Of a stretch of 46,627 nt of DNA, positions 25,473 through 27,086 are shown piece by piece. Under the pieces are notes generated by a model, which saw only the letters and a list, made by a program, of their open reading frames with translations, was not told where the DNA came from and did not search any database. A program made the translations under genes and the position numbers. How positions within the stretch are numbered: position 1 is the first letter of the stretch; the number at the start of each line of letters is the position of its first letter. The stretch lies in the IMG/VR virus record IMGVR_UViG_2541047706_000005, positions 1 to 46,627 of that record; one strand, given 5' to 3'. Origin of the DNA: a virus (lineage: Duplodnaviria; Heunggongvirae; Uroviricota; Caudoviricetes).

Positions 25473-27086
25473 GTGGCTATTTTTGGCAGCGGGATAATGT
25501 TCCGTCAGGGGAAGTTCGTCTTCCTGATCCAGCGCTCGGATGATGGCACATGGTGCCAGCCGGGCGGGACGATAGAGCCGGGAGAGTTAGCCATAGACGC
25601 CGCACGGCGCGAGGTGCTGGAGGAAACAGGCTATCAGTACGATGGCCCGCTGACGCCGCACAGCGTACATGGTGACTACCTGACCTACCGCGCCGACGTG
25701 CCGGAGCAATTCGAAGCGAAGATAAACGACGAATCGCTGGCCGCCGGATGGTTCCATATTGACGATCTGCCAAAGCCGCTTCATCAGCCATTCGCTGAAA
25801 TGCTGGCGCAGCAGGCGCTCAACGAAACCGACGTGGCCGCGCTCATCGCTGACGGAACGCTCAGCAGCCCGCAATATTTTTACAACATGTGGATGTTCGC
25901 CATCCGGGTGACCGGAACAGGGGTTACCTGGCGATCTGCAGATCAGGAGATGACGTTCCGTAACCCGGACGACTATCTCACCCCTGAATTTCTCCAGCGG
26001 GTAGCTGGCGTACCACTTATCTGGCTTCACCCCGAAAAAAGAACACTTGATAGCGACGAGTTCTCAAAGCGCGTTATTGGCACCCTGACAAATGCCTGGG
26101 TTGCCGATAAGGGCGAAGTGTGGGCCGTTGCGCGTGTGTACGACGCCGAAGCTGCTGAAATTATGGCAACAAGGCAATTAAGCACCTCGCCAACTGTGAA
26201 GTTCTCAGAGGTTGCTCAATCAATCATTGTCGACGGTCAGCCTCTACTGGTGGAGCCATCCCCCGAGCTGCTCGACCACGTTGCAATTTGTGAACAGGGC
26301 GTGTGGGACAAGCTCCTTGCCCCTACCGGTGTTAAATCTGATTCCATTCCTGAAGAGGCTGAAAAGATGGACGAGGAAAAAATCGTAGCGCTGATTAATA
26401 AGGCGATCGATGCGCGTTTGGCTAAGGCCGACGAAGAGAAGGAAGCGAAAGCCAAGGCTGACGCCGAAGAGGCCGCCAAGAAAGAAAAGGCTGACGCAGA
26501 AGACAAAGAAGCGGAAGAGGCGAAAGCTAAAGCCGACGCGGAAGAGAAAGCCGCGAAGGAAAAAGCTGATGCTGAAGCCAAAGAAAAGGCGGATGCCGAA
26601 GAGGCTGAGAAAATGGCAAAAGAAAAAGCCGACTCTCAAATCCTCCAGGAAATTGCTGAGCTTCGCTCCCGCATTCCTACCGAACTGAGCGACGAAGAGC
26701 GCAACGAAGTTGCAGAAGCGCAGGTGAAAGCCGATAGCGTCTTCTCCAGCTTTGGCAAACGCGCCCCTATCCCGCTGTCCGGTGAAAAACCGATGGCGTA
26801 TCGCCGCCGGCTGATGATTCAACTGCAGGAGCATTCGCCGGACTACAAAGCCGTCGATCTCTCTGCCATCGCTGATTCTCAACTGCTGAGCACTGCCGAA
26901 AAGCATATCTACGCTGATGCGCAGAAGGCGGCCAGCCTGTCAGTTGGTCCCGGTATGCTGCGCGAGATTAAGCGCGCCGATGCAACCGGTCGCCAGATCA
27001 GCACCTTTGAAGGCGATCCCGCCGTCACCTGGGCGCCGTTCCAGTCTGGCAAGCGTCAGGTCACCAGTTTTAACAACCAGGCTTAA
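25473..27086 (+). CDS. Nudix hydrolase domain fused to prohead scaffold-like protein with Lys/Ala/Glu-rich repeats
   Basis: Exact Nudix box [23 protein letters not shown] near the N-terminus; C-terminal (K/E)AKADAEE repeats typical of scaffolds. Confidence 0.6.
26400..26640 (+). repeat. Imperfect in-frame tandem repeats encoding the KA/E-rich scaffold segment
   Basis: Repeated gctgacgc(c/a)gaaga(g/a) units. Confidence 0.6.

Follow-up and report, generated by a model that had tools for sequence, protein, structure and literature searches.

In a 46,627-nucleotide (nt) stretch of Caudoviricetes DNA (IMG/VR record IMGVR_UViG_2541047706_000005, positions 1 to 46,627; referred to as the window), the gene at 25473–27086 encodes an uninterrupted fusion of a Nudix hydrolase domain, a prohead protease domain of the DUF2213 family and a scaffold region. 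The fusion is conserved in isolated phages and prophages, very probably contains a nested start ahead of its scaffold part and presents its N-terminus as a swappable cargo slot. We favour, with moderate confidence, the reading that the product is a tripartite head-assembly protein whose Nudix domain is trapped in the phage head and then delivered to the next host, together with a scaffold expressed from the nested start.

Domain architecture and probable nested scaffold start

The features of the gene, all on the plus strand, are as follows (aa, amino acids; ORF, open reading frame; SD, Shine-Dalgarno).

25459–25463, +: SD sequence AGGAG of the full-length ORF, 9 nt 5' of the GTG start
25473–27086, +: full-length ORF, Nudix + prohead protease (DUF2213) + scaffold, 537 aa, GTG start
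25473–25817, +: Nudix hydrolase domain, aa 1–115, Pfam NUDIX (PF00293)
25566–25634, +: Nudix box, aa 32–54, exact fit to GX5EX7REUXEEXGU (regular expression)
25818–25877, +: junction helix, aa 116–135, with the invariant E118; start of the protease-scaffold body, where Nudix-less homologues begin
25878–26342, +: DUF2213 assemblin/T4 gp21-like prohead serine protease domain, aa 136–290 (fold-based assignment)
26028–26030, 26187–26189 and 26277–26279, +: candidate catalytic residues H186, S239 and H269
26355–26358, +: internal SD-like GAGG, 8 nt before ATG 26367
26367–27086, +: probable in-frame nested gene for a 239-aa scaffold, M299 up to the stop of the full-length ORF (comparative evidence)
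26367–26672, +: charged coiled coil with (K/E)AKADAEE-type repeats, aa 299–400, long helices in the structure model
26673–27083, +: conserved C-terminal domain, aa 401–537 (~137 aa), following the repeat segment

Over its entire length the 537-aa protein matches phrog_6216 (E = 7e-246), and the AGGAG of its ORF overlaps the stop of the preceding gene. An earlier sequence-only reading had described this ORF as a complete Nudix box fused to a prohead scaffold protein that ends in a charged (K/E)AKADAEE repeat. The ORF, the box and the repeat segment (73–100% K/E/A/D across aa 301–390) are borne out, as is the scaffold position, since the gene lies between the portal and MuF-like genes and the major capsid gene, where the head module has its protease/scaffold slot. 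The fusion itself also stands, but not with a bare scaffold: a DUF2213 prohead protease domain of ~155 aa, omitted from that reading, lies in between, and the ORF ends with a further conserved domain rather than with the repeats.

Judged by its box and a whole-domain profile match, the N-terminal domain belongs to the Nudix hydrolase superfamily (Pfam NUDIX at aa 9–112, profile positions 10–132 of 134, E = 2.9e-16, 60.1 bits against a cutoff of 21.1). Conservation was read from a MAFFT alignment of 85 homologues at ~40% identity, 82 of which have the Nudix domain. The box residues G32, E38, R46, E47, E50, E51 and G53 are kept in 81–82 of these 82, and W27, E87 and W93 likewise. Across the window gene and its PdC23 and Yersinia phage orthologues, the ratio of non-synonymous to synonymous substitution (dN/dS) of the Nudix domain is ~0.03–0.12, as low as that of the protease, with dS near saturation. 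Because the box residues are conserved and dN/dS is low, the domain looks enzymatically active. That it is a catalytically dead structural module, or that two genes were joined artificially through an annotation or sequencing error, would fit the Tyr at the last (U) box position, which is variable across the family, and the inconsistent gene names in GenBank; it is essentially excluded by the near-invariance of the box residues, W27, E87 and W93, by the strong purifying selection and by the recurrence of the uninterrupted ORF in several isolated phages as well as in hundreds of independently assembled sequences.

The sequence-only reading had suggested looking for an internal start or ribosome-binding site that separates Nudix from scaffold. 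At the Nudix/protease boundary there is no SD sequence with a start codon, and an internal start splitting these two domains was rejected; an SD sequence and ATG 26367 do precede the scaffold part. We also rejected as unsupported the idea that 'LNE' at aa 116–118 is a T4-type LxE cleavage site that frees the Nudix domain, because the specificity is not transferable at 9% identity and because the Glu (E118) is retained in Nudix-less homologues and sits in a confidently modelled helix.

On the evidence of a shared fold, we assign the middle domain to the assemblin/T4 gp21-like prohead serine proteases, with the catalytic residues as candidates. The Pfam DUF2213 (PF09979) match is marginal (aa 159–276, 25.2 bits against a cutoff of 22, E = 1.8e-5); close homologues carry precomputed PF09979 matches, PHROG families 530 and 2229 ("head maturation protease") match the protease domain, and BFVD gave 100 structural matches at E ≤ 0.001, labelled DUF2213, prohead protease, or prohead core scaffolding protein and protease. 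Structural comparison used an alignment-based model covering aa 113–537 in place of a single-sequence AlphaFold model of the whole protein (pLDDT 43). Searched against the PDB, the body sequence found no match, and neither did Foldseek. H186 and T238-S239-P240 are invariant in all 85 homologues and H269 is present in 82; both histidines are also invariant relative to the canonical DUF2213 proteases Bcep781 gp14 and BcepB1A gp26 (18–21% identity), and canonical DUF2213 proteases have a Ser within one alignment column of S239. The order and spacing of His, Ser and His resemble those of the assemblin triad. T4 gp21 and the herpesvirus assemblins belong to MEROPS clan SH; T4 has its scaffold as a separate protein, whereas here it is fused in cis. 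The fold assignment for this divergent DUF2213 subfamily is an addition of the present analysis.

Downstream of the protease, the charged region contains a DNA tandem repeat (26445–26585, a 75-nt unit present 1.9 times). A helical, coiled-coil scaffold segment encoded upstream of the major capsid gene is found in phage scaffolding proteins as well. The C-terminal domain that follows is presumed to be the capsid- or portal-binding targeting part, common to both products of the gene.

The second of these products would start at M299. In five of five phages (38–99% identity) a Met occupies this site, each time with an SD-like motif 8–9 nt upstream. Across 264 diverse family members, 246 have a Met 5–35 residues after an invariant GVWDK, and 203 have it at +13 to +18; the chance of a Met in a six-residue window is estimated at ~14%, given a measured Met frequency of 2.6%. 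The Met-less exceptions have Val or Leu at the site. Alternative start codons were predicted for them beforehand, and the three read at the DNA level agreed, with GTG, TTG and GTG preceded by GGAG, GAGG or AGGAG. The SD sequence is kept through differing amino-acid pairs (E-A, G-D and E-D). In the MAFFT alignment M299 seemed conserved in just 13 of 85 sequences, an alignment artefact resolved by anchoring on GVWDK and by a smaller alignment. From the conserved Met and SD sequence, the alternative start codons with SD sequences and the precedent of the nested scaffold gene gp25 in phage BcepB1A, the gene very probably yields two products, the full-length Nudix-protease-scaffold protein and a 239-aa scaffold. 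Lambda C/Nu3 and Mu I/Z have a similar nested-scaffold arrangement. The nucleotide-level evidence for the nested start is likewise added here; the nested gene is absent from the annotation of the Chronis, PdC23 and Yersinia vB_YenM_29.18 records.

The N-terminal slot and related systems

A search with the body alone (aa 113–537) returned 1980 representative clusters at E ≤ 0.001 and 556 at E ≤ 1e-30. Cargo states were counted in 147 near-full-length proteins among the 150 best-scoring representatives. A strict Nudix box lies N-terminal to the body in 81 and a variant box in ~11, 49 have no N-terminal extension and a few others carry other modules; a Nudix domain is present in about 60% of the sampled members of the protease-scaffold family. 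Close Burkholderia-type relatives have bodies 72–92% identical and differ in their N-terminal cargo, which may be Nudix, ADP-ribosyltransferase (ART) + Nudix, PBECR1 RNase + Nudix, PBECR1 alone, LPD3 + Nudix or nothing, and the Nudix, PBECR1 and cargo-less versions occupy the same position in syntenic head modules. Because bodies this similar carry different cargo at the same syntenic position, the N-terminus is a swappable cargo slot, filled with effector domains of the kind typical of the "polyvalent proteins" that virions deliver (PMC5512222). The Nudix domain directly adjoins the protease body in every multi-domain member inspected, including a 1567-aa protein in which ribonucleotide-reductase-like domains precede Nudix + DUF2213 (P0367) and a 1015-aa protein in which a DUF5710 domain does so (P0250).

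Many relatives have short conserved N-terminal peptides before the cargo domain, of the types MPxVSEKQHRAMEAAAHGHSTLGIPxSVGxEF and MPLEKGSSxxxIxxNIxxExxAGKPxxQAIAIA (L002:4857-4990, L004:4821-4940 and many others); the window protein is without them. An 'ADHPR' motif occurs in cargo-variant members.

The sequence-only reading did not know this fusion as a characterised architecture. It is in fact common, and both the architecture and the packaging hypothesis are already known from computational work: Nudix fusions to MuF, to portal and to a capsid-processing serine peptidase have been described, with head packaging and injection proposed (Iyer et al. 2017, PMC5512222; 2022, PMC9503650), as have polyvalent proteins that end in an assemblin-like peptidase (Iyer, Burroughs, Anantharaman and Aravind; same papers). 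The window fusion is of the same class; the relatives found here carry ART, PBECR1 and LPD3 cargo. Those papers are computational and call the Nudix 'T4-like NudE', whereas in our comparison T4 NudE aligns with the window domain over the generic box half only (50 columns). Polyvalent proteins have at least two effector domains, with the assemblin-like peptidase C-terminal when present. The window protein has one effector and is a minimal relative of that class, not polyvalent in the strict sense; relatives with ART + Nudix, PBECR1 + Nudix, LPD3 + Nudix or DUF5710 + Nudix do fall within the definition.

The nearest annotated counterpart is gp26/gp25 of Burkholderia phage BcepB1A, a head maturation protease (COG3566) that likewise combines NUDIX, DUF2213 and a C-terminal scaffold region, with gp25 annotated as an in-frame nested "scaffold protein". 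The gene order is alike (portal-like, MuF-like, gp26, small virion protein, major capsid protein). BcepB1A gp26 differs in having a canonical DUF2213 domain (Pfam E = 1.6e-35 against 1.8e-5 in the window protein), an extra N-terminal peptide and a scaffold part of different sequence; in a five-sequence alignment its protease region is 18% identical to that of the window.

A second carrier is the portal. In Bcep781, Bcep1, Bcep43 and BcepNY3 the portal has a C-terminal Nudix domain of the same subfamily as ours (36% identity over the whole domain, E = 3e-21), with a common LNDEh..WF..LPxPLH tail. These head modules are related to that of the window (Phage_portal_3 at 116–480 and NUDIX at 576–679, plus a DUF2213 protease) and differ in that the Nudix sits on the portal C-terminus, not the protease N-terminus, while the protease, gp14, has no cargo. 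Portal and prohead protease both have a head-interior-facing topology. Our main argument is that a location inside the head is what is selected, because one Nudix subfamily sits on two different interior-facing proteins. The link between portal-borne and protease-borne Nudix, and the frequencies of the cargo states, are contributions of this analysis.

T4 internal proteins and P1 Dar proteins are head-packaged, injected anti-defence proteins. The concept is the same, prohead-loaded cargo delivered with the DNA, with no homology; they are targeted through Dar interactions or through a capsid-targeting sequence that is short and cleavable, rather than by fusion to a protease-scaffold (on such proteins, cf. 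PMC12810830). T4 also has a phage Nudix, NudE.1, encoded beside the internal-protein genes ipII and ipIII, which differs from the window domain in being free-standing. The gene nudE directly adjoins the lysozyme gene e, ipIII and ipII (NC_000866, 64500–68500), a neighbourhood used to argue for head association of phage Nudix proteins (Iyer et al. 2022, PMC9503650).

Possible fate and role of the Nudix domain

In the mechanism we propose, the C-terminal half (coiled coil and conserved globular domain) would serve as the scaffold and assemble together with the major capsid protein. Initiation at the internal ribosome-binding site and M299 would give abundant scaffold-only protein with the same C-terminus as the full-length form, and this shared part would pull the minor full-length form into the procapsid, so that protease and Nudix come to lie within the shell. 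Once assembly is complete, the protease would digest the scaffold. The folded Nudix domain of ~13 kDa, probably too large to escape, would be trapped in the head as an internal protein, be ejected into the next host with the DNA and act at the start of infection. There it would cleave a pyrophosphate-linked substrate, such as an RNA 5' cap (NAD, Np4A or triphosphate), NAD/ADP-ribose or an ADP-ribose-derived immune signal. The steps differ in strength: encapsidation of the Nudix is likely, whereas its retention in the head and injection are put forward tentatively.

The choice of substrate is qualified by the domain's closest profiles. The family Nudix profile searched against the PDB has as its best match the Nudix domain of the yeast decapping enzyme Dcp2 (54 bits, E = 1.4e-13, full length), and the invariant E87 aligns with the Glu of its "RNEID" motif, which by our own residue count we take to be Glu198, the general base. 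This suggests only a lean towards cap or dinucleoside-polyphosphate chemistry, because ApnA (Ap6A, Ap4A) hydrolases, MutT, ADPRase and DIPP score close to Dcp2. T4 NudE.1 is annotated as acting on FAD, diadenosine polyphosphates, ADP-ribose and NADH, and it is described as decapping NAD-RNA in vitro (10.1101/2024.04.04.588121). Among the host signals that the sequence-only reading had offered as substrates, the cyclic CBASS and Pycsar messengers are chemically implausible, because they lack a pyrophosphate bond; the Thoeris-type ADP-ribose derivatives do contain one and keep their place.

Several results weigh against the favoured reading or parts of it. An hhalign comparison of the protease domain with T4 gp21 gave a probability of 0.06, with nil sequence-profile similarity. 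NCBIfam assigned no Nudix subfamily, every equivalog match falling far below cutoff, and the competing Nudix classes lie within 5–12 bits of Dcp2, which leaves no substrate class singled out. Because one third of the sampled family members carry no N-terminal cargo, that cargo is dispensable for assembly. The Nudix might also be degraded by the protease or leave the head at maturation. Finally, our literature searches found no experimental work on Nudix-protease fusions, virion proteomics included, and no proteomic, structural or genetic evidence that places such a fusion in procapsids or virions.

Where the enzyme would act separates the remaining explanations. It could work late in the producer cell, with the fusion ensuring late, stoichiometric co-expression or placement where defence senses head proteins; it could, for example, destroy NAD/ADP-ribose-derived signals triggered by sensing of capsid, portal or protease. 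Prohead proteases and assembly proteins do trigger late-acting immunity, as in the activation of CBASS by prohead proteases (PMC12991175; on assembly proteins as triggers see also 10.1101/2023.05.21.541620), and the full-length protein would be in the cytoplasm before assembly. CBASS signals, however, are not Nudix substrates, the partners to which the Nudix is repeatedly fused (protease N-terminus, portal C-terminus, MuF) are specifically head proteins that should point inwards, the accompanying cargo domains ART, PBECR1 and LPD3 are typical of injected polyvalent proteins, and a purely cytoplasmic role needs no fusion. We regard this explanation as unlikely.

Slightly less likely still is that the Nudix is packaged and acts solely in the procapsid, as a nucleotide-responsive regulator or timer of the protease, or that it is degraded or expelled at maturation. 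The constant position of the Nudix next to the protease body, with other domains further N-terminal, could mean coupling in cis, and many prohead proteases self-digest. Such coupling is hard to reconcile with the same Nudix subfamily on the portal while the protease is encoded separately (Bcep781 gp17 and gp14), or with the third of sampled family proteases that lack a Nudix; the conserved catalytic Glu and Arg residues point to turnover chemistry, not mere binding.

A broader version of the delivery reading treats the protease-scaffold body as a general cargo-loading chassis, in which whatever domain stands at the N-terminus (Nudix, ADP-ribosyltransferase or PBECR1 RNase) enters the prohead, survives maturation and is ejected, the Nudix being a first-strike enzyme. 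Its targets would be immune signals or adducts that contain a pyrophosphate (gcADPR, His-ADPR, ADP-ribosylated targets) or host RNA 5' caps, within seconds of entry. We hold this version to be rather doubtful. To our knowledge, no published work demonstrates the delivery of an anti-defence or host-shutoff enzyme on a prohead protease.

Should the Nudix indeed arrive with the DNA, its action would precede all phage gene expression, in the one period in which the phage is otherwise undefended, and the domain would parallel, as an enzyme, the T4 internal proteins and the P1 Dar proteins. Prophages of Klebsiella, Yersinia, Pantoea and Burkholderia harbour the family in abundance, and because culturable members exist (Chronis, RothC/D and PdC23), the question of delivery can be answered by experiment. 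For engineering, the swappable slot suggests a way of getting foreign enzymes into phage heads.

Neighbouring genes and annotation in phage records

The flanking head genes, also on the plus strand, are the following.

21884–25460, +: upstream head-module genes, comprising large terminase (21884–23215), portal (23227–24642) and MuF-like head morphogenesis protein (24639–25460)
27102–29007, +: downstream head genes, comprising a 286-aa protein (27102–27962) and the major capsid protein (27976–29007)

The order of terminase, portal, MuF-like gene, Nudix-protease-scaffold gene, 286-aa protein and major capsid protein is the same in relatives. The 286-aa protein belongs to phrog_6268; its aa 165–240 are similar to Ig-like regions of tail-fibre proteins and of virion structural proteins, and its position equals that of BcepB1A gp24, a 'virion structural protein'. 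In PdC23 it is labelled 'endosialidase', a label that looks doubtful; possibly the protein decorates or cements the head. About 2 kb upstream of the terminase gene, adjacent tRNA-Asn(GTT) and tRNA-Thr(TGT) genes lie at 19508–19663.

The closest named relative is Klebsiella phage vB_Kpn_Chronis, ~99% identical in this gene (99.6% aa identity to gp4 over the full-length ORF), where the product is called "putative NUDIX hydrolase"; RothC and RothD are similarly close. All three are temperate phages of the proposed Felixviridae (bioRxiv 10.1101/2024.12.02.626457). Orthologues occur in the Yersinia vB_YenM phages and Pantoea PdC23, with more distant ones elsewhere. With more than 100 near-identical protein clusters on Klebsiella, Raoultella and E. 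coli chromosomes, this is a very common prophage gene.

In the 14 isolated-phage records with a match to the protease domain, this gene is never named as a prohead protease or scaffold; the names given are NUDIX hydrolase, glycosyl transferase, TolA or hypothetical, or there is no annotation at the site. The present analysis supplies the protease/scaffold annotation and, in addition, a probable nested scaffold gene. The Yersinia phage orthologues are mis-named 'glycosyl transferase', and the charged repeat accounts for the name 'TolA protein' given to the copies in an Actinobacillus phage and in Rac-SA53 (records OM046621-OM046629, KU052037 and PP818812). The Rac-SA53 copy has no Nudix domain, although the record note reads 'nudix'.

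Two further records, Shewanella phage vB_Sb_QDWS (OK094664, L002) and Hujiaoplasma phage zrk29-1 (OP650936), are both 47,902 bp long and gave identical tblastn statistics (query span, 42.4% identity, E-value and bit score), yet they are assigned to unrelated hosts, Shewanella baltica and a Tenericutes bacterium. Their protein shares 100% identity with a protein labelled Klebsiella pneumoniae, whose label is not that of the close relatives at 86–92%, nearly all of them given as Burkholderia. At least one of the two host labels looks doubtful, and the sequence may come from a Burkholderia prophage or a contaminant.

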